64,000 bases of DNA. Source: Giardia intestinalis (lineage: Eukaryota). Positions within the stretch are counted from its first letter, which is position 1; each line of letters starts with the position of its first letter. The stretch lies in NCBI GenBank assembly GCA_000002435.2, contig CM018791.1; one strand, given 5' to 3'. Below are positions 1-22,410 of this stretch, piece by piece. Below the pieces are notes generated by a model. It ran no database searches and was not told the origin of the DNA. It saw only the letters and a program-made list of their open reading frames with translations. A program made the translations under genes and the position numbers.

Positions 1-244
1 CCATGTGGAGGACCCGGTAGTAGAGGGCCGACCCCCGCAGCGTGGGCCCCAGGGCGCAGGCGGGGGAGAACGCGTAGAGCCCGCCCTCCTCGCTGTGGAA
101 GATGTCGCTGCTCTGGATGGCCGCCTCGAACGTGAAGCGGCGCCGGAAGACCTCCCGGAGGTACTCGTCGGGGGGCAGCGCGGCGAGGAACGCGGACGTC
201 CCCCGGCTCCCCCCGGCCGCGATGCTGTGGCCCACCGGGGGCAG
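1..244 (-). CDS. Hypothetical protein, N-terminal 81 codons (the gene runs off the left window edge). Extreme GC3 codon bias (MLPPVGHSIAAGGSRGTSAFLAALPPDEYLREVFRRRF...).
   Basis: Minus-strand frame from ATG at 244 is open to position 1, with third codon positions almost all G/C. An in-frame TGA at 278-280 lies just upstream of the ATG. The ~75% GC block ends exactly there. The competing plus-strand ORF 5..316 has mixed GC3 and runs into AT-rich spacer. Confidence 0.45.
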   Translation of the reverse strand, partial: MPPVGHSIAAGGSRGTSAFLAALPPDEYLREVFRRRFTFEAAIQSSDIFHSEEGGLYAFSPACALGPTLRGSALYYRVLHM

Positions 245-683
245 CATGTCCGAGACGTCCCGCGTGCTGAGGATGACTCTTCACCGATATTCCTTAGTAA
301 GCTTAGTCAATGGTAAGTATAACGTCTTGTAGACGACGAGTGACAGTAATTCACCGTGTTTTCCCAGGGCCTCTAAACTAAGAGAGCCTGACAACAAAGT
401 GCTCAAATTGCGGTTCAAGGCACGCATTATGAAGACATTGGCATCGCCGCTTTTTTAGGTTTCTGCGCCGGCCTACTAGGCAGTCAAAATAGTACAAAAA
501 TTTCCAAATTGATGTTTAAACAATTTTAGATGTGCAAAGACTTTCATCGACCTCTTACTGGTTGACAGCGAATAGCTGTTTACACACAGAAATTCCGTTA
601 TTGGTTTTCTTCGATAAATAAATTTCAAGAATCTTCGATTGCGCTGAATAAGTCAATGTTCCTTCAATCGTTGAGAAAAATAA

Positions 684-1478
684 ATGTGCTGTGATGAGGA
701 TGTCATTGCCCTCATCTGCGTGGGTGTCCCGATGGTTGTGTATGCCCTGATTGTAGGGTTCCAGAAAAGGAACCCAGCTGCTGTTGGTCAAGCGCTAAAG
801 ACTTGTTTTAATGACAACAAATCTATATGGAAAAAAGACCCTTTGAAGTGCCTTGCTGGTACTAAATATGGTGGCTTGTTTCTCTTCATAATGATCGTGG
901 CCGTGATCTGCATCATTTACGGGATTGTTGTTCAGATACTCAAATGTATTTTGTGTTGCTGTAATTGTTGTTGCGGGTGCTGCGGGTGCCTCGACTGCTT
1001 CCTCAAGTACGCGTTCCGCATCGGGGTCGGCGTCGGGTACCCCTCTTTGATGGATTTTCTTACATATTTGATCTCTGCTTCGGTAGCGAAGAATAACAAC
1101 TGGGTAGACAACAATCTCTCCAAGAGAGGCGCATTCAACAATGCAGTGGGAGGTTACAGTGGCATATCAATGCTATCTCTTGCGGCCGGTTGGGTCTTCA
1201 CTGTGGTCATCGGCTCATTTTTCATCCAGAAAGACAGCTGCGGCCTGAAATTCTTAGGGCTTATTCTAGGTTGTATCGTCGCCTTCGTCATTATCGCAGC
1301 TGTTGTCCCAGCAGATCCTCGTAATTTATACTCTGGTAAAGCCTTTAACAATCAGCTTTTCATTAGCAAGGAAGCCAGGTGGGGCGGCGTTCTCCTCGGC
1401 TTCATCAATGTAGGAGTTTTCACAGGCATGTATGCTGCTGCCCTGTGTTGCTTGAACGGCTGCTGCTGTTGCAAGTAA
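684..1478 (+). CDS. Polycysteine multi-pass membrane protein with about 5 predicted TM helices. Carries Cys tracts CILCCCNCCCGCCGCLDC and CCLNGCCCCK.
   Basis: 264-aa ORF with ATG at 684 in an AT-rich context (GAGAAAAATAAATG). Five hydrophobic 19-24-aa segments. Two juxtamembrane poly-Cys tracts. Confidence 0.6.
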   Translation: MCCDEDVIALICVGVPMVVYALIVGFQKRNPAAVGQALKTCFNDNKSIWKKDPLKCLAGTKYGGLFLFIMIVAVICIIYGIVVQILKCILCCCNCCCGCCGCLDCFLKYAFRIGVGVGYPSLMDFLTYLISASVAKNNNWVDNNLSKRGAFNNAVGGYSGISMLSLAAGWVFTVVIGSFFIQKDSCGLKFLGLILGCIVAFVIIAAVVPADPRNLYSGKAFNNQLFISKEARWGGVLLGFINVGVFTGMYAAALCCLNGCCCCK

Positions 1479-1531
1479 ATAGTGGTGTCCCCGTGCAGAC
1501 TTTTCTTTTTGACAAAAATCACGGTTGCTAG

Positions 1532-2562: not shown

Positions 2563-3231
2563 ATGTCTGAGGAGTATGACATCCAAAAGGAAGTCGTGGA
2601 GGACGAGCTTGCCCAGTTCAAGCGGGACTATGATAAGGTGGCAGCCAATCCAGCCTTCTATTATGCCAGCTCCGCAGGTGACGCATTTCAAGTTATGAGG
2701 AAGGTACTTGTCAAGGCGGGCCGAGACCTCTCTCTCCTCGAAAAGGAGATACTTGGTGCGCGTGACCCTGCTGTCAGAGAGCAGCGGGAAATGGAGTACA
2801 GTAACCTAAAGAAGCTTTATGAAAGCTATAGAACCAAACTTAACGATCTTGAGGTGCAATCCCGAGAGGCTGCGATGAACTCTGGGGCCATCCAGGACGA
2901 GCCACTAACAGCTGAGCAGCGACTCGGCGCCGCAGTAGTCATACAGGAGGATACGAATGTTCGTGTAAAGGATACAATCAACATAATGCAGGAGGTCGTA
3001 GTGATGAATGATGCCATACTTGAATCGCTGGACCGTGATATGGAGCGTCTCAACCGCGTCTCTGAGGAGCTCGACGGGATTCAGGCAGACGCTGCGCTTG
3101 CTCGGCGGCAGCTTCGGAACGTCATGCGGGCCCTGGCCTCAAATAAGTGCATGCTCTGTGTCATGATGGTCATCTGCATCATTGTGCTAATAGTTAGCAT
3201 CGTAGACCTAGCACAGGCCACCAAGAAGTGA
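2563..3231 (+). CDS. Tail-anchored Qb-SNARE of the Vti1 family.
   Basis: C-terminal SNARE heptads NIMQEVVVMNDAILESLDRDMERLNRVSEEL...RRQLRNVMRALASNK align to the Vti1 motif (IGSQIMMDL...RETLENARQTL...TMTRRLVANK), including the zero-layer Q. These are followed by a single C-terminal TM (CMLCVMMVICIIVLIVSIV). 222 aa is the typical Qb-SNARE size. Confidence 0.7.
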   Translation: MSEEYDIQKEVVEDELAQFKRDYDKVAANPAFYYASSAGDAFQVMRKVLVKAGRDLSLLEKEILGARDPAVREQREMEYSNLKKLYESYRTKLNDLEVQSREAAMNSGAIQDEPLTAEQRLGAAVVIQEDTNVRVKDTINIMQEVVVMNDAILESLDRDMERLNRVSEELDGIQADAALARRQLRNVMRALASNKCMLCVMMVICIIVLIVSIVDLAQATKK

Positions 3232-5440: not shown

Positions 5441-6424
5441 ATGCCGTTCAAGCAGACCCGCCACTTGCTCACTATCTCTGCCCTCTGCCCCAAGGAGCTT
5501 GCGTACCTTATCGACCGTGCGCTCGACATGAAGAAGAACCCCGCGAAGTACACTGCGCGTGCGGCCAACAAGACCCTGCTCGCCTTCTTCGCCAAGCCGT
5601 CACTCCGCACACGCGTCTCCTTGGAGACAGCCATGACGCGCCTTGGCGGGCACGCGATCTACTACGAGCTCGGCGCAAACTCCAACGTTGGCGGCAAGGA
5701 GACCGTCCAGGACACCGCTGAGGTCTTCTCGCGCATGGTGGACATCTGCACAGCCCGCCTGGCCACCAAGGAGATGATGAGGGAGATGGCCCAGCACGCT
5801 TCTGTGCCCTGCATCAACGCCCTTGACGACTTCGGCCACCCGCTCCAGATGGTCTGCGACTTCATGACCATCAAGGAGAAGTTCACGGCGGCAGGCGAGT
5901 TCTCCAACGGCTTCAAGGGCATAAAGTTTGCATACTGCGGGGACTCCATGAACAACGTCACATACGACCTCATGCGTGGCTGCGCCCTGCTTGGCATGGA
6001 GTGCCACGTTTGCTGCCCTGACCACAAGGACTTCAAGCCCATCAAGGAAGTCATCGATGAGTGCGAGGAGATCATCGCAAAGCACGGCACCGGCGGCTCC
6101 ATTAAAATCTTCCATGACTGCAAGAAGGGGTGCGAGGGCGTCGACGTCGTCTACACAGACTCGTGGATGAGCTACCACATCACCAAGGAGCAGAAGGAGG
6201 CCCGCCTCAAGGTTCTCACGCCGTTCCAGGTCGACGATGCCGTCATGGCCGTCACCTCCAAGCGCAGCATCTTCATGAACTGCCTTCCAGCGACCCGCGG
6301 TGAGGAGCAGACGGCGTCTGTCATTGACGGGCCCAAGTCCGTCTGCTACGACGAGGCCGGGAATCGCCTGCACTCGGCTATGGCGGTCCTCGACTTCTTC
6401 TTGCATGACTGCAAGATGGAGTGA
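5441..6424 (+). CDS. OCT: Ornithine carbamoyltransferase (arginine dihydrolase pathway).
   Basis: SLRTRVS (STRTR carbamoyl-phosphate motif), HPLQ (HPxQ), DSMNNV and NCLP (the HCLP ornithine-binding motif). It aligns along its length to OTC/ArgF. GC3-rich codon usage. Start context GAAAATTAAAATG. Confidence 0.93.
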   Translation: MPFKQTRHLLTISALCPKELAYLIDRALDMKKNPAKYTARAANKTLLAFFAKPSLRTRVSLETAMTRLGGHAIYYELGANSNVGGKETVQDTAEVFSRMVDICTARLATKEMMREMAQHASVPCINALDDFGHPLQMVCDFMTIKEKFTAAGEFSNGFKGIKFAYCGDSMNNVTYDLMRGCALLGMECHVCCPDHKDFKPIKEVIDECEEIIAKHGTGGSIKIFHDCKKGCEGVDVVYTDSWMSYHITKEQKEARLKVLTPFQVDDAVMAVTSKRSIFMNCLPATRGEEQTASVIDGPKSVCYDEAGNRLHSAMAVLDFFLHDCKME

Positions 6425-6443
6425 TTCTTCTGTGTCTTAGTAG

Positions 6444-6450
6444 AGTGAAT
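6444..6450 (+). promoter_or_regulatory. Poly(A) signal AGTGAAT (AGTRAAY) downstream of the OCT stop.
   Basis: Consensus match 20 nt after the TGA at 6422-6424. Confidence 0.45.
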
Positions 6451-6540
6451 GGTCCCGTTCTCTTTTTTCCTCTGTCTACATCTACAGCGGGCGACATTGC
6501 CTCAGTCCCGATGAAAAAACAAGCCGAGAGCCAAATTTTC

Positions 6541-9500
6541 ATGTACCTGTCAGGGGTGGAAATCAAGAACTTCCGCTCCATTGTCCATACATCTGTTACG
6601 GGACTCCATCCGGGAATCAACGTATTCATAGGTATCAATGGCGCAGGGAAATCGAATTTTTATAGTGCAATACTTTTTGCCCTGATGGACCCCCTCTACG
6701 ACCTGAAGACAATTAACAGGGCCCAGATACTATCCAATGACGCAAAAACTAAGTCCGGCTATGTAAAGCTAATTATAGATTTGGAAGGCGCTGCAGTAGG
6801 GGACTTCCAGGGAAGGGTATCCATCTCCAGACACTTCACAATAACTACAGACAGCTTCTATTTAAATGACGTACTGGTAACCAGCGATAAGGTTGCCAAT
6901 TTCCTTTCGATTATGGGATTTAACCCCAGTTCTCAAGGATACACCTTTGCAGTCCAACAGAGTAAGGTTACTAGCCTTGCAATGTCGGCCCCAAAGGCAC
7001 TCCTCGATGCATTTAACTCCAGCACTGGCACATGGGAGTACGATACGCGTAAGCAGGACGCTCTAGAAAAACTCAAAGCAGCAAGAGAAGAGAGGGAAGA
7101 GGCACAGCAAATTTATATGCAGCTTAAAGGACGATGCAGCAGACTAACCGAGCGGATGAATAAGAACAAGGAATACCTCAAGCTAATGGCAGAAAGGAGG
7201 GCTGCTGAGCACGCCCTTGCAACTCTTACTTATGATGCTCTCCAAGAGCAACGTGCACGATTAGAAACGCAAAAGGAAGCGCTCATAGAGGATTGCAAAG
7301 CCAAACGTACCCAAATAGATGCAATAAGAGCGGAGATTAATGTGCTTACAAACGAGCTCACTCCACTACAGCTTCAGGAGGATAAGGCCCTGGCAGCAGA
7401 AAGAGCGGTTAATGACCATGTTTACTACCTTGTCGATTCATGCCAATACCTAAGCTCTTTCTGCACTGCTAAGTCACAAAGGAGCCAAGAGCAGGAGGAC
7501 AGTGCAACCATAAGACGGCGTAGTGCACAGGACGCCCTTGAGGAAGCGATCTTACGCGAGCGATCTCTTTTGGATGAGCTAGCCACGCTCAGAAATGCAC
7601 AGTACTCTCTTTCATCATTTATAAGGAAGCAGAAGATCATGCTGGAAGGCCAGGAGGCTAATAAACGTGAGTCTCTCATTAAAGAGCTAGAGGATATCCT
7701 TCGAAATCTTATCAACGCAGAAGCAGAGCATGCAGCAATCAAGTCCTTGCAAGAAGAGGTTAAGCAGGAACTAGAATGCATCTCTAAGAAGCTAAATGTC
7801 TGTAAAATGCGAGAGACAGAGATCAATGCTAGTGAGCTCCTTCAGAGGTACACAGAATTCAGTGAGAAAAAGCAGCGACTGAATGTAGATCTATCCATGA
7901 AAGTAAAGAGCTTAAATGAGGCCGAAAACAAGGTTGTGCATGAAGAGTATCAGCTTTCGCAACTTACGCGTGAGTTTCTTGACCTGGCGCCTGCGAATCT
8001 GGCAGCTGGCGCTAACTTGTGCCTCTCTGCAATCAGGGAAGCAAAAATAAGCGGGTTCAGGGGGTTTCTTGCTGAACACATAAACGCAGCCGTGGGATCT
8101 TATCCAGCACTAGAGTCCGCTATAGGATCCACCGGGCTTTACTCCTTATTAGTAGAAAAACGCGAAACAGCTACAGAGATAATGCGGCACATTCGTCAGA
8201 GAACATCATCTTCGCCATTGTCTGGCAAAGCAAACTTTATTGTTCTTGATGCAGTCTCTCCGCCTTGTTTGCAGGAGATTAACAGTAACTGTGTTCCCTT
8301 GGCTTCTCTGGTAAGCACAGTGGATGACACTAGACCAGCAATCCTGCAAGCTTTGGGCACCAGTTACCTGACAAGATCATTGGAGGACGCAGCGAAGTAT
8401 TCCAGTGAGCATAATATCGATTGTTACACAGTCACTGGCGATGTCATACAAGGTTCTGGGGTTGCCATAGGTGGACACCGTAGCTTCAAAAGAATTAAGT
8501 GTGGTGTAGCTTTGGGAATCTCTCGTGAGGCTCTACTTGGAGCATCTCTCACAAAGGGACGAGTGAGCACTGAGATAGAAGAAATAAAGCAAGAGCTCCG
8601 CAATGTTGGTGCAGAGATAACCAAATTGGAGCCAATTGTTTCGCCCTTACAGGAAGAGCTAAGTGGTATTCGCGCAGAGATACTTCCCCTCTCCGGAGAA
8701 CTTACCAAACTGCAAAAGACGGAGACAAAATTGCATGCTGATGAGCAAGAGCTATGTGCGCGAATTAACACACTGTCCCAGATGAAGCAAAGCATGGAGG
8801 ACTCTGTGTCCTCTTTAACTGCAGGCAATAAATTGAACCCGGCAAAGGTGAAACTATTAAGACAGGAGCTGGCTAATAATGAAGCTAACGAAAAGGAGAT
8901 AGAAAAGAAGATAGACACCATCCAGGCTCTGGTAAATAAGGCAGCTGTTGATAGGATGAAAGCAGAGGCAAAAATGCAAAGCATAGACGCTAGTGGGACG
9001 CAGATTGAGTTGGGAATAAAAGAAAGAGGCGATGTTGATGCGCAGATGATGTCTTTGTTAACGGGGCTGGAGCAAGCTAACCTAGAGGCATTAGAGTTTC
9101 CGTCAGACAGAGATGGCTTAGCCCCCTTTGTAGAAAATCTTAGAACATTGAGCGAGAAGCTGAAGGACGCCATTAGCAACAAAGAGGAACTCGATGCTGT
9201 TGCACGATTGTCGGCTAAGTTTCTATCTGCCCTGACTGAGTTATCCGATAGTACAAAGGTGACTGTGGCCAATTGTAAAGAGACAACCAGTCGACAAAGG
9301 CAGAAAATAGTTAACAAGGAGGCAGAAATAGAAGATCTCAACCGTCAATTGGAGACAATTGCCATGGGATTTGAAGCCCTTGATCTGGAAAACAATGATG
9401 CTCTTCAGCATTATAAGAAGGCCGAGATTGCGCTAAGAGAGATAGCTGCCCCCACAGCAGATGAGATGGAGGCCCTTCAGCGCGAGAAAGCAGCAGCCAA

Positions 9501-10236
9501 GGTGTCGGATGAGCAAGAGCGCTCCTGGCTTGTTTCTTACATTGCTACAAAGTCCCAGCAGATGGGCGAAACTCCCCCAATTAGCCAACGTGTAATTGAT
9601 CAGTACGACAGAGCAGTCAGAGAGAAGGATCAACTCGAGAAGCAACTGGCTGATGTTGTTGAAGGGGAGCACGCTGTAGAAGATCTGGTGATGAAGCTGG
9701 ATGTTAGGCGAAAGGTGCACTTCGAGGAGCAATTCAAATTGGTTGATGCACGGTTTTCAGAGATCTTTCATAGAATCACGGGAGGCAAGGCTCGTCTCAC
9801 CTTGTCCACGCATGGAGATGAAGAGCCCGATGGAATCTTAGTGGACGCTACCTTTGCCAACCAGGCAACAAAAGATGTTCAAATGTCCGGTGGTCAGCGA
9901 ACGTTGACCAGTCTTTGCTTTGTTCTAGCCACAGAGCAAGCATCCAATAATTCCTTCCTTCTTCTGGATGAGCCAGACGCGTGCCTCGATGAGGCCTACA
10001 GAGCTGTGTTTGCCAGCCTCCTGGCAGAGCGTGCTGCACAAGGAATCCAGGTGTTTGTGATAACCTTCAGGACGGAGATTATTACGGTAGCAAACCAGTG
10101 TTTTGCAGTCAGCAGGGTGGAAGATCACACAACAATAGAGCCTGTTGCCAGCGCATATGCTTTGAGCGTAGCAGCAGACGCTACAACAGTTGGGCTATTT
10201 GCAGAGGGAGGGCACGATAAGCTCGCCGCTGTTTAA
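6541..10236 (+). CDS. SMC (structural maintenance of chromosomes) ATPase; the N-terminus is most similar to SMC3.
   Basis: N-terminal MYLSGVEIKNFRSI...GINGAGKSNFYSAILFAL (Walker A). A central hinge (GFRGFLAEHINAAVGSYPALESAIG...SLLVEKRETATEIMRHIRQ) is flanked by long coiled coils. C-terminal signature MSGGQRTLTSLCFVLAT and Walker B LLLDEPDACLD. The ORF track starts at a GTG (6421); in-frame ATGs are at 6511 and 6541. I chose 6541 because it is preceded by AT-rich sequence and gives the canonical SMC N-terminus. Confidence 0.85.
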   Translation: MYLSGVEIKNFRSIVHTSVTGLHPGINVFIGINGAGKSNFYSAILFALMDPLYDLKTINRAQILSNDAKTKSGYVKLIIDLEGAAVGDFQGRVSISRHFTITTDSFYLNDVLVTSDKVANFLSIMGFNPSSQGYTFAVQQSKVTSLAMSAPKALLDAFNSSTGTWEYDTRKQDALEKLKAAREEREEAQQIYMQLKGRCSRLTERMNKNKEYLKLMAERRAAEHALATLTYDALQEQRARLETQKEALIEDCKAKRTQIDAIRAEINVLTNELTPLQLQEDKALAAERAVNDHVYYLVDSCQYLSSFCTAKSQRSQEQEDSATIRRRSAQDALEEAILRERSLLDELATLRNAQYSLSSFIRKQKIMLEGQEANKRESLIKELEDILRNLINAEAEHAAIKSLQEEVKQELECISKKLNVCKMRETEINASELLQRYTEFSEKKQRLNVDLSMKVKSLNEAENKVVHEEYQLSQLTREFLDLAPANLAAGANLCLSAIREAKISGFRGFLAEHINAAVGSYPALESAIGSTGLYSLLVEKRETATEIMRHIRQRTSSSPLSGKANFIVLDAVSPPCLQEINSNCVPLASLVSTVDDTRPAILQALGTSYLTRSLEDAAKYSSEHNIDCYTVTGDVIQGSGVAIGGHRSFKRIKCGVALGISREALLGASLTKGRVSTEIEEIKQELRNVGAEITKLEPIVSPLQEELSGIRAEILPLSGELTKLQKTETKLHADEQELCARINTLSQMKQSMEDSVSSLTAGNKLNPAKVKLLRQELANNEANEKEIEKKIDTIQALVNKAAVDRMKAEAKMQSIDASGTQIELGIKERGDVDAQMMSLLTGLEQANLEALEFPSDRDGLAPFVENLRTLSEKLKDAISNKEELDAVARLSAKFLSALTELSDSTKVTVANCKETTSRQRQKIVNKEAEIEDLNRQLETIAMGFEALDLENNDALQHYKKAEIALREIAAPTADEMEALQREKAAAKVSDEQERSWLVSYIATKSQQMGETPPISQRVIDQYDRAVREKDQLEKQLADVVEGEHAVEDLVMKLDVRRKVHFEEQFKLVDARFSEIFHRITGGKARLTLSTHGDEEPDGILVDATFANQATKDVQMSGGQRTLTSLCFVLATEQASNNSFLLLDEPDACLDEAYRAVFASLLAERAAQGIQVFVITFRTEIITVANQCFAVSRVEDHTTIEPVASAYALSVAADATTVGLFAEGGHDKLAAV

Positions 10237-10319: not shown

Positions 10320-13148
10320 ATGCTGGATATGCTATGCTGCCTAGCCCTCCTGAACCTGGCTCTGGCGGTCCCCCAGGAGTGCATGTTTGGCGGGGAGGAG
10401 TGTGGTGGACATGGGAGGTGCCATGTAAGTACTGATGGCACTCCGAGCTATTGTGTCTGCGATAGCGACTACACCCTCTCTCCCACCATGGGCTGTGTCG
10501 TAACAGCTTGTTACAGTGAGGTCCTCGACGTAATGTGCAACAACGGGGAGTGCCAGCAGGTCGACGGCGTTTACAAGTGCGTCTGCCCTTCAGATCTTAT
10601 CTATGTAGGGGGCCAGTGCACAACGATGGACTGTATTTCTAAAGAGGACGACGGGAGATTCACCGTCTGCTCTAACAACGGATACTGTGGGTACGGCTTC
10701 TTTGGTGATTCTAAGTGCATGTGCCTGCCTGAGTATGATGACGACGGACTTTGCAAGACGTGTAACACAACCAATGCGGACCTGATCGACGGTAAGTGTG
10801 TTAGCAAGAAATGCTTAACAGGGCCTCCTGGCGAGGCAACTCAGCTCTGTGGCGGGTGCGGAGCGTGCGTGAGGACGGGTGCAGGCTACAATCTTGCCTA
10901 CACGTGCGCATGCTCGGGTACAGATGGCTGTAAGGAAGTGTCCGCTGGAGTGTGCGGCATTGATGCCTGCATTTCAGACAATCAGTTGGGAGTCGTGTGC
11001 AATGACGCCGGAGTTTGCGATAAGAACGGCTGTCACTGCAATGCAGGGTACTCGGGCCCAACTTGTCTGGTCAACGAGAATGATCCTAACGCGTGCCAGT
11101 CGCAGTATACGCGGATCAATGGAGAGTGTGTGCCGAAGATCTGCGTGCCGGCCATACCTGGCGACAACGTTTGTGGAGGTCCTGAAGCTGGTACCTGCCT
11201 CTTCAATAAAGATATCAAGAACTTCTTTTGCTACTGCTCCGATGGCTATATTAATGCTCTCGATAACAGGATCGACTTTAATTATCAATGTGTGCCATTT
11301 GGTTGCCTAGATGGCCTTGGCGTTTGCTACGAGGGTAAGTGTCTTCCGGGTCAAGGGCCCTATCCATGCATCTGTGACCCAGGCTTCCACAACGACCCTA
11401 GGTCTGGCTTCTGTGGATCCGACATCTGCCTAACGGGCGGACCGGACAACCCCGACGAGGCTTGCAGTGGCCATGGCCAGTGCATGTACTACGGGTGCTG
11501 GTGTGATCCAGGCTACGGTGGTGATACCTGCAATGAGGATGCGCCGGTTTACTGCTATGAAGGCCAGATTGCAGTCGGCAAGGAATGCGTCTTTACAGAT
11601 TGCGTGAGCTACACACCTGAAATGGGCGTTTGCGGAGGCTTCGGGACGTGCGTGCAGTTCACTGGATTCTACGGTTCGAGTGATTTTTACGAATGCCAAT
11701 GTGACCCAGGTACGATTTACGACCGCGACTATCTCTGTCTGCCATCTGTCTGTCTTACAAGTGACGGCCAGGTCTGCCCACACGGATCGTGCCAGAAGGT
11801 GGATGGAGAGGCGACTTGCGTTTGCAACAACGGATACAAGAGCATTAACAATGCTTGCTTCCCTCTTTCGTGTCTTGTGACCATCGACGGAGAGGAGCTT
11901 GTTTGTGCAAACAACGGTGAGTGTGACCTTGACTCAGGAATTTGCAACTGCAATGAACTTTTCCACGGCGAGCACTGCGATGTCCCCAAGGACCACGAGA
12001 TCGTTTGCAATTCTGACGAAACCTTGATTGGCGAGCGGTGTGTTTCTGACTACTGCATATTCGATGGCGTAGAATGCAACAACCACGGGCGCTGTGATAA
12101 GACATTCAGCGACGGGCCCAGGTGCGCTTGTGACTTGCTGTATATACTCTCCGCCCAGTATGGTTGCGTTCCTCTGAACTGTTACGATCAAGACACGGAT
12201 TCCGTTTGCCCCGATGGCCGGTGCGTGGGTGAGGGCAAAGATATTCATTGTGAGTGTAACCCGGACTTTACCCTCATTAATTCTGTCTGTGTTCACAGCA
12301 ACTGTCTAGCAGATGATACGATTTGCTCAGGAAACGGCTACTGCGCGCAGAGTGTGTCTGGGGAGTACAAATGCCAGTGTGACTATCTTCATAGTGGTAG
12401 TCTCTGTAATGCGTGTTCGTCTGACGCGGTCCTTATAGATGGCTTGTGTGCCAGTGACAGCTGCATCACAGTAGATGCTTCTGGGAAGAAAACTGTTTGC
12501 TCTGGAATGGGTGTCTGTAAGAAGGATTCTTCTATCAGTAGCGCCTATTGTTCCTGCAGAGCTCCTTTTGCACTCGTCTCCGGAAAGTGTGTCTCTGCTG
12601 ATTGCTATGCTGGAGAGCCCATTGGTGCTCCCTGCAACGGCCGGGGCTACTGTGGCTTGAGCACTTTCTGCACAGATCCATCGACCTGTAACACGGGGCA
12701 ATGCTTCTGTAATGAGGAATACGAGGGCAGTCTTTGCGAGAGCTGCTCCTTCAACTATATCGACGTGCCAACCTACGGGTGTGTCGCCAGGGCATGTTAC
12801 AAGGATGGCTTGGTATGCAGCTCTGCCGGAGACTGCATTGATGGCCAGTGTCAGTGCGCGAGCGGCTATACTGCTTCCGGAGCCGAGTGTTTGATGCCTT
12901 CAGCCACAAAGAACGGAGTCCTGATTGGAACTAGCGTGGGCGGTGTCGTCTTACTCATAGCAATCATTGTCGGTGTATTCTTCTGCGTCAAGAAAGCGCG
13001 GAAAGGAAAGGCTCCTGAAGGGCGCGCAGGAAAGAAGACAAGAGCACTGCTGTCTGACGGTGACGACGAGGATGAGGACCTTTTGGTTCCTTCGGAGTCT
13101 GAGTCCGGGTCTGCCTCCGCTGCAACAGGCACAGATGAGATTCCTTAA
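10320..13148 (+). CDS. High-cysteine membrane protein (HCMP), EGF-like group, type I membrane topology.
   Basis: Signal peptide MLDMLCCLALLNLALAV. About 940 aa of repeated CxxC, GxC and EGF-like Cys spacings. One C-terminal TM (VLIGTSVGGVVLLIAIIVGVFFCV). A ~55-aa cytoplasmic tail lacks the VSP CRGKA terminus and contains the acidic dileucine DDEDEDLLVP. Confidence 0.85.
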   Translation: MLDMLCCLALLNLALAVPQECMFGGEECGGHGRCHVSTDGTPSYCVCDSDYTLSPTMGCVVTACYSEVLDVMCNNGECQQVDGVYKCVCPSDLIYVGGQCTTMDCISKEDDGRFTVCSNNGYCGYGFFGDSKCMCLPEYDDDGLCKTCNTTNADLIDGKCVSKKCLTGPPGEATQLCGGCGACVRTGAGYNLAYTCACSGTDGCKEVSAGVCGIDACISDNQLGVVCNDAGVCDKNGCHCNAGYSGPTCLVNENDPNACQSQYTRINGECVPKICVPAIPGDNVCGGPEAGTCLFNKDIKNFFCYCSDGYINALDNRIDFNYQCVPFGCLDGLGVCYEGKCLPGQGPYPCICDPGFHNDPRSGFCGSDICLTGGPDNPDEACSGHGQCMYYGCWCDPGYGGDTCNEDAPVYCYEGQIAVGKECVFTDCVSYTPEMGVCGGFGTCVQFTGFYGSSDFYECQCDPGTIYDRDYLCLPSVCLTSDGQVCPHGSCQKVDGEATCVCNNGYKSINNACFPLSCLVTIDGEELVCANNGECDLDSGICNCNELFHGEHCDVPKDHEIVCNSDETLIGERCVSDYCIFDGVECNNHGRCDKTFSDGPRCACDLLYILSAQYGCVPLNCYDQDTDSVCPDGRCVGEGKDIHCECNPDFTLINSVCVHSNCLADDTICSGNGYCAQSVSGEYKCQCDYLHSGSLCNACSSDAVLIDGLCASDSCITVDASGKKTVCSGMGVCKKDSSISSAYCSCRAPFALVSGKCVSADCYAGEPIGAPCNGRGYCGLSTFCTDPSTCNTGQCFCNEEYEGSLCESCSFNYIDVPTYGCVARACYKDGLVCSSAGDCIDGQCQCASGYTASGAECLMPSATKNGVLIGTSVGGVVLLIAIIVGVFFCVKKARKGKAPEGRAGKKTRALLSDGDDEDEDLLVPSESESGSASAATGTDEIP

Positions 13149-17844: not shown

Positions 17845-20800
17845 ATGCTCCTATTCGCTCTTAACTTTTTGGCGAACCTTTTGGCAGACTGTGGGCCAGG
17901 TAGCGATTGCGTTCATGGGGTGTGCGGTACCACTGACGGATCCTTTGTCTGTCTGTGCAAGCGGGGCTGGACAGGCACTGCATGCGATGTGGTTGCACCT
18001 AATTTTAAACTGATTAGCTCCGGCAGTGATCCGAAGATAGAGAAAGCGGTCAACTTCGCGTGTTTAGTCAATGGTACAGAGTGTGATACCAAAAGGACAG
18101 AAACATGTCTTTATCACAATGGTGCATATTCATGTCAGAATAAATGCCCTGATGGATTCGTCATATACGATGGAGAATGTATCTCTAAGAGATGCTATTC
18201 GTCCAGTTCTGTATCGTCAGATACTCCCCAATCCAACCCCCCGTGTAATGGGAAGGGGAAGTGTGTCCTCAAGGACTTGGCGAAACTTGATCGTGCCGAT
18301 GAGGCAGACTACGTGTGCAGCTGTTTTCCAATTTATAGAGGAGATCTCTGTGACACCTGCAACCTAGAGAACTCCGTTGAGTCCGAAGCAGACAAAGGAA
18401 AATGCAATCCAAGATCCTGTCAGGATAGCGACGGGCTTGTCTGCTCTGGCAAGGGAAAGTGCGAGTTGGACTTTGGCTACAACCTCACTCACTATAGCTA
18501 CCAGTGCATATGCGATGCTGGATATACGCGTGTTGGCCACTCTTGCATCCCGTCAGCTTGTGTAGTGTACCTAAGCGGTACCCCTGTGACCTGTGGGGGC
18601 TTCGGTGAGTGTAAGGAGAACCCCGAGGGTTCAAATAGCTTCTCCTGTGCCTGCTATGAGGGCACTGTAAAAGTAGGAAATGGATGCACATACCGCACCT
18701 GCACCGAAAGCGAAAGTGCAAGCAAGATATGCGGAGGCATCGGTGTCTGTGTGCGTGATGACACAGAATACAAGTGTGACTGCAAAGGGTTTGCTACCGG
18801 CAGCTTATGCGATAGCTGCGTTTCTGAAAATGCAACCTCTGTGGGCAATCAATGTATACCAAATGAGTGCCTCGACGAAGCAGGCACGACGGTTTGTAAG
18901 GGCAATGGAAAGTGCATCCGAGCAAGTGGAAGGTACTATTGCCAGTGCCCCAACATGACTACATTCTTCAACAAACAGTGCATCTCGGTTAACTGCATTG
19001 ATCAGGAACTCAACCTCATATGCTCTGGTCACGGAACTTGTGACACCACCAGTCCCAAGGATATGAAGTGCACTTGTGAAAGTGGCTATGAATATATTGC
19101 GCCGGGTCGCTGCATTTCAAGCACACTGTTGGGAACGGACAAAAGGGTTTGCAATGGTAACGGATACGTGGCTATTTCTTCTACTAATACTATTGGTAGC
19201 GCGCCAAATCTTGTCTGCATCTGCTCTCCTATTTACACAGGAGAGAACTGCAGTACGTGCAACACTACAGGGGAAAACGCTCCTGCTGAACAAGTGGACA
19301 GTAACTGCGTACCAAAAAGTGTCATTGTTAAGTCTACTCAGCTGCATGCAAAGGAAGTAACTACAAAAGTATGCGATGAACAGACAGAGTACGTAATATA
19401 TGGAGATACTACACGTCCGTACATGACGTGTAGGGTGAAGAATACAGACGAAAAGAAAGTCATTGCCTATAATGCAACGCTTCTGGTGGAGCCAGACTGT
19501 ATGCACGTTAGTCAGGTTGATAGAACTAGGAGATTCTACTGTGGTTTTGCGGAAGGGTTGACAGACGGAATAACTACCAATGGGCCTAGCTGCAATACAA
19601 ATACAAATATTATTCCCTCTACTTCAACATGCGTATGTCCAACAAACTTTAAGCTCGTGGAGTTCATATACGGCAAGAACAAAGGAAAGCATACCTGCAT
19701 ACACGATGATTGCCATGATGGTAACCAAACTTACAACCAAAACAATTATTGTGGAGGCGTTGGGGACTGCATTAAGAAGCCCGGTGCAAGCAAATATGCA
19801 TGCGATTGTGGACAGGGTGCACGGTGGGACGAGACCATTAGGGAATGCGTGGCTGAGACATGCAAGATTGATAAACTTATATATGGCCCTAGCGAAAGAG
19901 AGTATTGCACAGAGATTAATATCGCGGCGAGCATCGACAACGTATGCCTCCCAGATGATAGCGGAAGGTGGGGATGCCACTGCACAGGGCGCTACATGAC
20001 ATATGGGAGCACGTGTACATCCTACGCAGCATATGCCACGGAAAAAGATGACCGCGCACGAGGCCCATGTGGCGGTCCTGGTGCGGGTTACATCAACGAC
20101 AGGAACAAATGTGTGTGCTATCCTGGGTTTGTGTCGATAGATGGGAAGTGCTACAGTAAGCAATGCTTGGCAATGGGCGTTATAGGATCCTACAATATAA
20201 GCCACGTATGCTCTGGACTTGGGGTATGTGCATACAACCCTGTCACTGGCTTCTATGGGTGCGAATGTCCCAAAGACACGGAATCATATGGGGCATACTG
20301 CACCCATACAGGATGTGTCGGACAAGTCTTTTCCGAAGGGGAGCTGAGATACGTACAGTGTGGTGTCCACACCAGAAGCATACAGTGCAAACAGAATAGC
20401 AAAGATAATACATATTCTTGTATCTGCTACACACCGTACAAGAAGATCGGTAACCTTTGCGTCCACCAACGGTGCATTAACGGTGACATATATTGCAGTG
20501 GAGATTTGCTTGCTAATTGTGAGCTCTTGGAGTCAATATATCAGTGTCAGTGCTCCGAAGGGTATGTGAAAGGTAGAAGCCCGCACGAATGCATCCCGAA
20601 GAAATGCACATATAGAAGATATGAGAGTGACCTGGTGACGGAGTGTGGCGGACTGGGTCGATGCGAGGGTGATAAACTTATCACCAAGAAATGTAAGTGT
20701 AACGATGGTGCTGAGCTGGTGTCTATGATCGACATAAGCGGTGAAATGCATGAAACATGTGTGTCCAAAAGCTGCATTTCTAAGCAGGATGATACAACGA

Positions 20801-22410
20801 TAGTTTGTGGCGGTTATGGACGGTGTGACGGCAACGCTTGCATCTGTGATGGAAATCTTGTCCCGGTTGGAAATGTTTGCGTAAGCAGTAAGTGCGTTGT
20901 TCAACTGGCAAGTGGAAGCACTTCTGTGTGTGGAGGTAGTACTGTGGGGACATGCACAAAGGGTCAAGGTGAAGACCACTACTCTTGCAAATGTGCAACA
21001 CCAGGGAAGACAGGCTTTAAAGAAGTTGATGGATACTGTCTCCCCAATAAATGTGTGTTCAACGTAAAGCAAAATGGAAAAGATGTTGACACGATGTGCG
21101 GCGGGGCAAGTCTTGGATCTTGCATTATCGACCCAACTGGCGATACTTCATACTGTAGTTGTCTAAGATGGTACAATATAACAACACTTAGTAGTGGCCA
21201 GTGTATTAGTACCAGGTGTGTTAATTCTGTTACCTCTGACAAGAAAGAGTGTGGAGGAAATGGAAGATGCGCTTACACAGATGGCACTGGGTATGAGTGC
21301 CAGTGTAATTCTGGATACAAAACGGTAACGGTCGGGCGTAACATTTATCCGTGCATCTCTGAAAACTGCCTAGCAGGTGAGTCAATGTGTAGTGGTCACG
21401 GGGAGTGCGTAAACAACGGCTGCAGCTGTAACAAAGGTTATACTGGTAGCAAGTGTGAGTCCTGTGCAACGGGGTATAGAGAGACTAACTCCGTCTGCTA
21501 TCTGGATGAGTGCCCACAAAGTGGCTGTGGACTAGCAGAAGCGGGAACCTGTGCGTTTACGGGCTTGCAATATCAATGTAGCTGTAATACTGGCTTCGTC
21601 TTAGATACCGAGACAAAGGCCTGTCGGCGTCCTCTTTGCACATATATAGATCCGTTTGACGGACAGGCGAAAATATGTTATAATATGGGAACATGCGCTC
21701 AGTCTGGAAGCACAGGAAAATGCGTATGTAATCAGGGAACTGTGGCTCTTAATGACAACATATGCGTCTTTGAAAACTGCATCACCAATAAGGATTCGTC
21801 CGAAATATGTGAAGGAAAGGGCGTGTGTGAGAGGAGTCCGGAGTCTAATACAGGCATTTGCGTGTGTAACACATCTCTTTATCGCACAGACAAGAAGAGT
21901 GGGCGTTGCTTCCCGGTGGGCTGCTTTTCCTCACAAGAGACTGGCCTGACTAATGTCTGTAATGGCGGTGGGACATGCAGCGTAACAGGGGTGGTTGGAA
22001 TTTGCAATTGTGATAGCGACTGGGTTACGATAGAGGGAATGTGTTACCCGGTTTCTTGCGTATTTGGAGGAGCCGTATGCAGCGGGTTTGGAAAGTGCAT
22101 CTTCTCTAGCAGCGGAGAGCACAGATGCCTTTGCGACCAAGGTTACGAGCCTGGTGAAGATTTAGGAACGTGCATCACTCGTTCTACAAAGGCAAAGCAA
22201 GGAGCGGCCGAGATATCGATAATTGTGGTGGTTGTGGTTGCTCTAGTGATTTTGGCAGTAGCCATATTCTTGATCTGGAAGTTCGTCATCAAACCTCGCT
22301 CCAAGTCACGCAAAAGAAGTAACAATGACCTCAATCAAAGATTGATCACGGTAGATGGCGAAGATGCTCCTGTGCTTTCTCCACGAGCTCGAGGACAGAC
22401 TCTGATGTAA
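17845..22410 (+). CDS. High-cysteine membrane protein (HCMP), EGF-like, 1521 aa.
   Basis: Signal peptide MLLFALNFLANLLADC. Dozens of EGF-like Cys modules (CxCxxGYxGxxC and CSGHGxC patterns). One TM (ISIIVVVVVALVILAVAIFLIW). A basic ~45-aa cytoplasmic tail without CRGKA. Start context GAGAAAAATAAATG. Confidence 0.85.
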   Translation: MLLFALNFLANLLADCGPGSDCVHGVCGTTDGSFVCLCKRGWTGTACDVVAPNFKLISSGSDPKIEKAVNFACLVNGTECDTKRTETCLYHNGAYSCQNKCPDGFVIYDGECISKRCYSSSSVSSDTPQSNPPCNGKGKCVLKDLAKLDRADEADYVCSCFPIYRGDLCDTCNLENSVESEADKGKCNPRSCQDSDGLVCSGKGKCELDFGYNLTHYSYQCICDAGYTRVGHSCIPSACVVYLSGTPVTCGGFGECKENPEGSNSFSCACYEGTVKVGNGCTYRTCTESESASKICGGIGVCVRDDTEYKCDCKGFATGSLCDSCVSENATSVGNQCIPNECLDEAGTTVCKGNGKCIRASGRYYCQCPNMTTFFNKQCISVNCIDQELNLICSGHGTCDTTSPKDMKCTCESGYEYIAPGRCISSTLLGTDKRVCNGNGYVAISSTNTIGSAPNLVCICSPIYTGENCSTCNTTGENAPAEQVDSNCVPKSVIVKSTQLHAKEVTTKVCDEQTEYVIYGDTTRPYMTCRVKNTDEKKVIAYNATLLVEPDCMHVSQVDRTRRFYCGFAEGLTDGITTNGPSCNTNTNIIPSTSTCVCPTNFKLVEFIYGKNKGKHTCIHDDCHDGNQTYNQNNYCGGVGDCIKKPGASKYACDCGQGARWDETIRECVAETCKIDKLIYGPSEREYCTEINIAASIDNVCLPDDSGRWGCHCTGRYMTYGSTCTSYAAYATEKDDRARGPCGGPGAGYINDRNKCVCYPGFVSIDGKCYSKQCLAMGVIGSYNISHVCSGLGVCAYNPVTGFYGCECPKDTESYGAYCTHTGCVGQVFSEGELRYVQCGVHTRSIQCKQNSKDNTYSCICYTPYKKIGNLCVHQRCINGDIYCSGDLLANCELLESIYQCQCSEGYVKGRSPHECIPKKCTYRRYESDLVTECGGLGRCEGDKLITKKCKCNDGAELVSMIDISGEMHETCVSKSCISKQDDTTIVCGGYGRCDGNACICDGNLVPVGNVCVSSKCVVQLASGSTSVCGGSTVGTCTKGQGEDHYSCKCATPGKTGFKEVDGYCLPNKCVFNVKQNGKDVDTMCGGASLGSCIIDPTGDTSYCSCLRWYNITTLSSGQCISTRCVNSVTSDKKECGGNGRCAYTDGTGYECQCNSGYKTVTVGRNIYPCISENCLAGESMCSGHGECVNNGCSCNKGYTGSKCESCATGYRETNSVCYLDECPQSGCGLAEAGTCAFTGLQYQCSCNTGFVLDTETKACRRPLCTYIDPFDGQAKICYNMGTCAQSGSTGKCVCNQGTVALNDNICVFENCITNKDSSEICEGKGVCERSPESNTGICVCNTSLYRTDKKSGRCFPVGCFSSQETGLTNVCNGGGTCSVTGVVGICNCDSDWVTIEGMCYPVSCVFGGAVCSGFGKCIFSSSGEHRCLCDQGYEPGEDLGTCITRSTKAKQGAAEISIIVVVVVALVILAVAIFLIWKFVIKPRSKSRKRSNNDLNQRLITVDGEDAPVLSPRARGQTLM

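Follow-up and report, generated by a model that had tools for sequence, protein, structure and literature searches.

A Giardia-restricted family of six-helix membrane proteins with clustered cysteines on one membrane face

The gene and its cysteine clusters

Cysteine-rich, palmitoylated proteins dominate the surface and endomembrane biology of Giardia, and to our knowledge few polytopic membrane proteins of this parasite have been characterised. We analysed a gene near the start of a 64-kb stretch of Giardia DNA (the window). Its product is 100% identical to G. duodenalis WB XP_001709974.1 (UniProt A8B2H5, KAE8302979.1), which carries just the database label 'Transmembrane domain-containing protein'. 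The features of the gene are listed below, with the basis of each assignment in brackets; entries without brackets are read directly from the sequence.

673-683, plus strand: A-rich stretch GAGAAAAATAA directly 5′ of the ATG, a putative Giardia-type initiator/promoter
684-1478, plus strand: complete open reading frame (ORF), ATG to TAA, 264 amino acids plus stop
687-692, plus strand: N-terminal Cys pair (M-C-C-D-E-D), four residues before TM1 (MCC(C)DED kept in 21 of 21 close relatives)
702-761, plus strand: TM1, aa 7-26 (hydropathy; AlphaFold helix 5-25)
762-869, plus strand: loop 1, aa 27-62, hypervariable except for R29 and a Cys pair (family alignment; AlphaFold)
870-944, plus strand: TM2, aa 63-87 (hydropathy; AlphaFold helix 63-91)
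945-998, plus strand: central poly-Cys tract C88-C105 (CILCCCNCCCGCCGCLDC) in the TM2-TM3 loop, 11 Cys in 18 residues
999-1088, plus strand: juxtamembrane amphipathic segment and TM3, aa 106-135 (AlphaFold helix 103-137)
1089-1148, plus strand: loop 3, aa 136-155, hypervariable and Cys-free (37% identity; 0.03 Cys per member)
1149-1226, plus strand: TM4, aa 156-181, with near-invariant Y158 and invariant W170 (1191-1193) (family alignment; AlphaFold)
1227-1247, plus strand: loop 4, aa 182-188 (QKDSCGL), with conserved C186 (1239-1241) (family alignment)
1248-1313, plus strand: TM5, aa 189-210 (hydropathy; AlphaFold)
1314-1379, plus strand: loop 5, aa 211-232, hypervariable and Cys-free (27% identity; 0.03 Cys per member)
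1380-1445, plus strand: TM6, aa 233-254 (hydropathy; AlphaFold)
1446-1475, plus strand: C-terminal Cys tract CCLNGCCCCK, aa 255-264
1474-1479, plus strand: AGTAAA over the TAA stop, a dual stop/poly(A) signal of the kind typical of Giardia

A8B2H5 contains 25 cysteines in its 264 residues (9.5%) and no histidine. The original prediction, made from the DNA alone, had singled out two poly-Cys tracts, CCCNCCCGCCGC and CCLNGCCCCK, and both are present: the former spans aa 91-102, within the wider block C88-C105, and the latter forms the C-terminal end of the protein. It had not mentioned two further juxtamembrane Cys sites, M-C-C at the N-terminus and C186 between TM4 and TM5. Nine cysteines within 12 residues (CCCNCCCGCC GC) had been called highly unusual, and this was borne out both by shuffling and by the other ORFs of the window. 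When the residues of A8B2H5 itself were shuffled, at least nine Cys in 12 residues arose in 1 of 100,000 trials, and no other ORF of the window goes above four per 12 residues, even in two classical high-Cys proteins (11-13% Cys); Cys makes up 3.1% of the remaining long ORFs overall. The clustering is far beyond chance. Because TGT (10) and TGC (15) codons are mixed, the tract is not a pure trinucleotide repeat.

The signals that flank the ORF look like those of an ordinary Giardia gene. Upstream, GAGAAAAATAAATG also precedes the middle paralogue of a cluster in isolate DH (see below). Downstream, all assemblage A and B copies end in AAGTAA and the copy in a more distant Giardia-like genome (ERR3333381) ends in AAGTGA, and AGTRAA is absent from the interior of the ORF at 684-1478. 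The AGURAA poly(A) signal and its dual use as NAG-UAA have been described for Giardia (PMC9014877). Accession text searches and the published proteomic supplements that we searched returned neither a transcript nor a peptide record for A8B2H5.

AlphaFold supplied with close homologues only gave a model with a pLDDT of 57, which was discarded; with divergent paralogues added, the pLDDT was 85 and the pTM 0.84. The long helices of the latter model span residues 5-25, 63-91, 103-137, 147-181, 186-210 and 229-254, the fourth being split at the single residue 158 into 147-157 and 159-181. Hydropathy and the model agree on six hydrophobic helices, as expected for the multi-pass membrane protein that had been predicted, and the two tracts do adjoin transmembrane helices, at the ends of TM2 and TM6. 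All four Cys clusters lie on one membrane face of the modelled bundle. The only parts of low confidence are residues 94-97, the variable loops and the eight C-terminal residues; the pLDDT below 50 at residues 94-97 suggests a flexible loop in the centre of the Cys tract.

A six-helix family and the selection on its cysteines

An exhaustive profile search of 1.84 billion representative proteins returned only 16 relatives, all named ones from Giardia and the remainder from read-archive assemblies, with E-values for family members from 1e-102 to 4e-6. A second, word-indexed homology search added only one more paralogue group, and a third, also word-indexed and using a profile of divergent members, returned just two already known G. 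muris proteins. No relative outside Giardia came up at HMMER sensitivity, and so no orthologue in Spironucleus, where the original prediction had proposed to look. The family is thus restricted to Giardia at that sensitivity, and has had no earlier name.

Its assignment to any known family also failed, as had been anticipated. Scans of A8B2H5 and of 20 family members against Pfam yielded nothing but sub-threshold noise, such as DUF998 at E = 0.015. Sequence searches of the PDB, with a single query or a profile, gave no meaningful match, and a fold search of the PDB with the model found no relative. An internal 3+3 repeat was also considered and rejected (hhalign probability 2%).

Copies at least 90% identical to A8B2H5, in the same cluster, are present in isolates DH (A2) and P15 (E), and the assemblage B orthologue (GS, BAH15c1) is 78% identical. 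The family holds several divergent paralogue groups, among them GL50803_12830, GL50581_921, GLP15_818 and GLP15_2362 of G. duodenalis. Two G. muris members carry long tracts: the central tract of TNJ26955.1 is longer still (CACCCSCCGCGCCGCCDCLGDCC), and GMRT_12676 has a run of nine Cys in its tail. Members have in common their six helices, a G-F-x-x-R-x-P motif following TM1, two paired cysteines in loop 1, Cys where TM2 ends, an aspartate in mid-TM3 and Y-S-G...W in TM4. Two residues besides W170 are invariant in 32 of 32 members, namely R29 in loop 1 (768-770) and D124, mid-membrane in TM3 (1053-1055); C56, C88, C91, Y158 and G196 are near-invariant. The tail L-C-C-L-x-G-x-C-C-K is conserved in close relatives, and most divergent paralogues keep a CC[GRK] tail. 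GenBank and UniProt list two assemblage B members (P0011 and P0033 in our set; ESU41458.1, KWX12253.1) under the name 'Cell division protein kinase 2'. This is likely to be an annotation error, as they are six-helix membrane proteins that have no kinase domain.

We then compared the WB gene with its assemblage B orthologue codon by codon. Synonymous divergence is saturated (dS ∼1) and the overall dN/dS is 0.14, with values of 0.037 for the four Cys-bearing segments, 0.07 for the transmembrane helices and 0.19 for loops 1, 3 and 5. The strongest constraint therefore falls on the Cys-bearing face. Cysteine is kept at 23 of the 25 positions in assemblage B, six of them through TGT/TGC swaps, and at 21 of 25 in ERR3333381, 13 with codon changes. 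Because Cys is retained despite these swaps and dN/dS is low, we conclude that selection acts on the cysteine itself. The tracts, which would have been incidental had orthologues lacked them, are instead kept in G. duodenalis assemblages A, B and E and in G. muris under strong purifying selection.

Paralogue cluster and gene conversion

The genes around A8B2H5 follow the same order in isolate DH and in BAH15c1 (assemblage B), an arrangement that anchors the window to the WB chromosome. Among the neighbours, all on the plus strand, 5441-6424 encodes ornithine carbamoyltransferase, and the DH and assemblage B orthologues of 6421-10236 carry SMC domains.

In isolate DH (GCA_000498715.1, L003 6335-10759), three family paralogues lie within 4.4 kb, the A8B2H5 orthologue being the last. 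The other two are a 252-aa copy on the opposite strand and the middle copy, of ∼248 aa, which runs from L003 8797 down to 8053 and is absent from the called genes. Between the middle copy and the A8B2H5 orthologue sits a GC-rich PIP5K-like fragment. The equivalent in the window is positions 1-280 (minus strand), where GC content rises abruptly to 66-78%; this segment corresponds to a 157-aa DH gene fragment with PIP5K (PF01504) matches (L003 7566-8039), and its identity is taken from the DH annotation, a Pfam scan of the 93-aa fragment encoded in the window having given no match. In assemblage B the contig stops 423 nt upstream of the A8B2H5 orthologue, near the expected start of the GC-rich block, which suggests that the region is hard to assemble. 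A tblastn search found no second family copy within the window, and any WB paralogues would lie just outside it.

The paralogues appear to exchange sequence. One feature of the gene carries this argument:

969-1045, plus strand: 77-nt patch that matches both DH paralogues with one mismatch at most and takes in the 3′ half of the Cys tract as well as the start of TM3 (flanking identity 0.6-0.8)

Against the assemblage B orthologue, comparable runs reach 41 nt at most. A near-identical patch of 77 nt indicates gene conversion over the part of the gene that it covers, and DH-specific patches in loop 1 and TM4 point the same way. So do two proteins from ENA metagenome contigs (P0003 and P0004) that look like mosaics of the assemblage B A8B2H5 orthologue and its shorter paralogue, and are either real recombinants or assembly chimeras.

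Sidedness and possible roles of the cysteines

Cysteines were counted loop by loop across 32 family members. The mean number per member is 1.6 at the N-terminus, 7.7 in loop 2, 1.3 in loop 4 (many relatives have CC in place of C186) and 3.4 at the C-terminus, against 0.03 in each of loops 3 and 5 and exactly two in loop 1 of almost all members. The two faces also diverge at different rates: in the close family, pairwise identity is 72-90% in the Cys-bearing (even) segments and 27-37% in loops 3 and 5. Loop 1, in which the conserved pair is C41 (804-806) and C56 (849-851), has a mean pairwise identity of 34% and forms two short helices in the model. The number of Cys in the central tract position ranges from one to 12 or more across paralogues, with no fixed spacing, and the tracts of A8B2H5 all lie within about 10 residues of a helix end. 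With its fixed Cys pair in loop 1 and variable, Cys-free loops 3 and 5, the odd face looks exoplasmic, and the Cys runs next to helix ends, with their variable and often odd counts, look like cytosolic S-acylation sites. Divergent paralogues extend beyond TM6 in long hydrophilic tails that start RRKH or QKKK, or in a C9 run followed by KK, and such tails are typical of the cytosol. From the Cys pattern by face, these tails and the CC-G/R/K ending, we infer that both termini and the four Cys clusters are cytosolic.

Orientation is the main uncertainty, since the positive-inside rule points the opposite way for A8B2H5. In its subfamily, 15 Lys and Arg lie on the odd loops and six on the Cys face. 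Across TM1 the charge difference amounts to +5, and by charge rules the N-terminus would be outside and the Cys face on the exoplasmic side. These rules give contradictory answers between subfamilies and the family average is neutral. N-glycosylation sequons are too few in the family to inform on sidedness.

On balance we lean towards a proteolipid-like protein, with a cytosolic, multiply S-acylated Cys-rich face and variable loops facing outward. In such a protein of six helices with both termini in the cytosol, Cys clusters would stand at every cytosolic helix end: MCC at the N-terminus, 11 Cys in the TM2-TM3 loop, C or CC in the TM4-TM5 loop and six Cys after TM6. The ∼20 thiols would be substrates for Giardia DHHC S-acyltransferases, which would turn the protein into a proteolipid bearing many thioester-linked fatty acids. 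This acyl array would hold the flexible loops against the inner leaflet, extend the effective hydrophobic length, govern sorting and exit from the ER (and, by analogy, stability) and promote entry into ordered, raft-like membrane. All three variable loops would face outward, loop 1 being braced by a putative C41-C56 disulfide. The helix bundle, with its invariant D124, W170 and R29, probably has an activity of its own, for example the binding or transport of a small cation or lipid.

The enzymes that such acylation requires are present, Giardia having nine DHHC acyltransferases (PMC4109852). The literature that we searched held neither a Giardia palmitoyl-proteome nor an acylation experiment on any family member. 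In one proteomic data set a divergent paralogue, A8BA73 (GL50803_12830), turned up in the purified lipid-raft fractions alone, with no detection in either large or small vesicles (PMC9445159, Supplementary Table 1), but it is only 26% identical to A8B2H5 and those fractions also contain many cytosolic contaminants. The support for S-palmitoylation, metal binding or a raft or scaffold role of A8B2H5, as put forward in the original prediction, is indirect.

Three other readings of the tracts were weighed against S-acylation. The most plausible of them, which we nevertheless regard as unlikely, is that the tracts form a membrane-tethered thiolate array, a membrane metallothionein for soft metals (Zn, Cu(I), Fe, Cd, As) or a thiol shield buffering oxidants and NO for a microaerophilic parasite without glutathione, possibly on the exoplasmic or luminal face. 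The density of Cys and the lack of His recall metallothionein, the charge rules put the Cys face of the A8B2H5 subfamily outside, and Cys-rich Giardia VSPs are reported to bind metals. However, the cysteines are consecutive (CCC, CCCC and the nine of GMRT_12676) and number from one to 12 or more per position, and such variable numbers without fixed spacing make a count-tolerant modification likelier than a defined metal site. Moreover, variable, often odd numbers of Cys would be unusual on an exoplasmic face, the classical exoplasmic pattern, with one Cys pair in loop 1 and with loops 3 and 5 Cys-free, is found on the opposite face, the distance of the tracts from the helix ends is that of S-acylation sites, and Pfam gave no match to any metal-binding family. 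Somewhat less probable again is that the cysteines are unmodified structural elements at or in the membrane, their small hydrophobic side chains serving tight packing or oligomerisation, as has been proposed for CYSTM-type modules, with function residing wholly in the six-helix core, for example in a transporter or channel acting via D124. Cysteine does score as hydrophobic, so that the hydropathy windows continue through both tracts, the modelled TM2 reaches residue 91 and TM3 begins at 103, and the three invariant residues stay fixed while tract length varies. But AlphaFold makes the middle of the tract a loop of low confidence and not a helix, the strongest purifying selection lies on the Cys face, Pfam found no CYSTM match, and free juxtamembrane cysteines are efficient DHHC substrates in other eukaryotes.

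We give very little weight to the remaining reading, that the tracts are incidental low complexity generated by slippage on TGC/TGT repeats in a fast-evolving or non-functional ORF. Part of the tract does contain a (TGC)n-like run in paralogues, and copies differ in tract length by one or two codons. The conservation data contradict this reading: such a process would hardly leave a full-length ORF conserved in assemblages A, B and E, the Giardia-like genome and G. muris, with a dN/dS of 0.04 on the Cys face at dS ∼1, Cys preserved through TGT/TGC swaps, promoter-like and poly(A) signals intact, and a clustering that shuffling reproduced once in 100,000 trials.

Several known systems each resemble A8B2H5 in part. 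The transporter NaPi2b (NaPi-IIb, SLC34A2) has a cytosolic polycysteine stretch by its last transmembrane domain that is putatively palmitoylated and affects sorting (PMC9335355). Like A8B2H5 it is multi-pass with consecutive Cys directly after the last helix, but the two share neither sequence nor fold, and one tract on a known transporter contrasts with four clusters on an orphan six-helix core. In cysteine-string protein (DNAJC5) and the coronavirus spike endodomain, ∼10-14 Cys within ∼20-25 residues are multiply S-acylated and fix the segment to the cytosolic leaflet. Their Cys density is comparable to that of the central tract of A8B2H5; DNAJC5 is, however, a peripheral J-domain protein and spike is single-pass, and of the three only A8B2H5 has its tract in an inter-helix loop. 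A cysteine-string protein proper (N-terminal J domain, Cys string, no transmembrane helix) was rejected as an identity for A8B2H5, which has neither a DnaJ nor a spike domain match in Pfam and has six transmembrane helices.

In general layout A8B2H5 also resembles myelin proteolipid protein (PLP/DM20), the tetraspanins and the claudins. These small polytopic proteins keep both termini in the cytosol, carry palmitoylated cysteines at the N-terminus, intracellular loop and tail, have disulfide-braced extracellular loops and organise membrane domains; they have four helices and few acylation sites, whereas A8B2H5 has six helices. Membership of a four-helix tetraspan family (tetraspanin, claudin/PMP22, MARVEL, PLP), which would call for four helices and a signature such as CCG in EC2 or W-GLW-C-C in ECL1, was rejected on helix number, on the lack of a match to PF01275, PF00335 or PF00822, and on the lack of a PDB fold match. 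Within Giardia, the TM-CC-G/R/K tail of the family resembles the CRGKA tail that follows the last helix of VSPs, the Cys of which is palmitoylated. VSPs and high-cysteine membrane proteins (HCMPs) likewise combine high Cys content with a short Cys-bearing tail, but they are single-pass proteins with a signal peptide and a large CXXC-rich ectodomain, whereas the cysteines of A8B2H5 stand in runs at helix ends. A8B2H5 has no ectodomain, CXXC repeats or PF03302 match and was rejected as a VSP or HCMP, only the short Cys tail being reminiscent of them. The DHHC S-acyltransferases carry a zinc-binding, Cys/His-rich domain of ∼50 aa with the DHHC motif in the cytosolic TM2-TM3 loop, the same position as the Cys loop of A8B2H5, which is only ∼18 aa long; A8B2H5 itself, having neither a DHHC motif nor His, and with no Pfam match to PF01529 among 20 members, is not such an enzyme. 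Modules of CYSTM or PLAC8 type (PF12734, PF04749), found in small proteins that have one Cys-rich hydrophobic module, were likewise rejected, with no Pfam match at E up to 10 for A8B2H5 or up to 1 for 20 members.

Polytopic proteins with polycysteine, presumably S-acylated juxtamembrane tracts are thus a known kind, and what is new is the orphan, Giardia-restricted six-helix fold. The family is under strong purifying selection and has no host homologue, and its parasite-specific loops, if they do face outward, could serve as diagnostic or vaccine epitopes. Should A8B2H5 prove to be multiply acylated, it would rank among the most densely lipidated polytopic proteins described and would offer a handle on how raft-like domains are built in Giardia, domains that have been connected with encystation signalling and with the release of vesicles. 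Free thiols would instead make the protein relevant to the handling of metals and oxidants, and possibly to the adduct chemistry of nitro drugs. A more far-reaching proposal, which we put forward with considerable reserve, is that the family comprises either Giardia-specific six-helix proteolipids whose exceptionally dense acyl array (∼20 thiols) nucleates ordered domains, or an exoplasmic or luminal thiolate buffer for metals or redox at the parasite surface, in which case the clustered, gene-converting paralogues, with hypervariable loops facing outward, would constitute a second, non-VSP variable surface family.

Other membrane proteins may be encoded nearby. Two large plus-strand ORFs, at 10320-13148 and 17845-22410, contain 12.8% and 11.0% Cys respectively, never with more than three Cys per 12 residues, and the assemblage B counterpart of the former has faint EGF-type Pfam matches, consistent with a high-cysteine membrane protein. 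Two genes downstream of A8B2H5, the plus-strand ORF at 2563-3231 encodes 222 aa with a C-terminal transmembrane helix and a sub-threshold match to a SNARE domain (E = 0.007), and its product is probably a tail-anchored SNARE.
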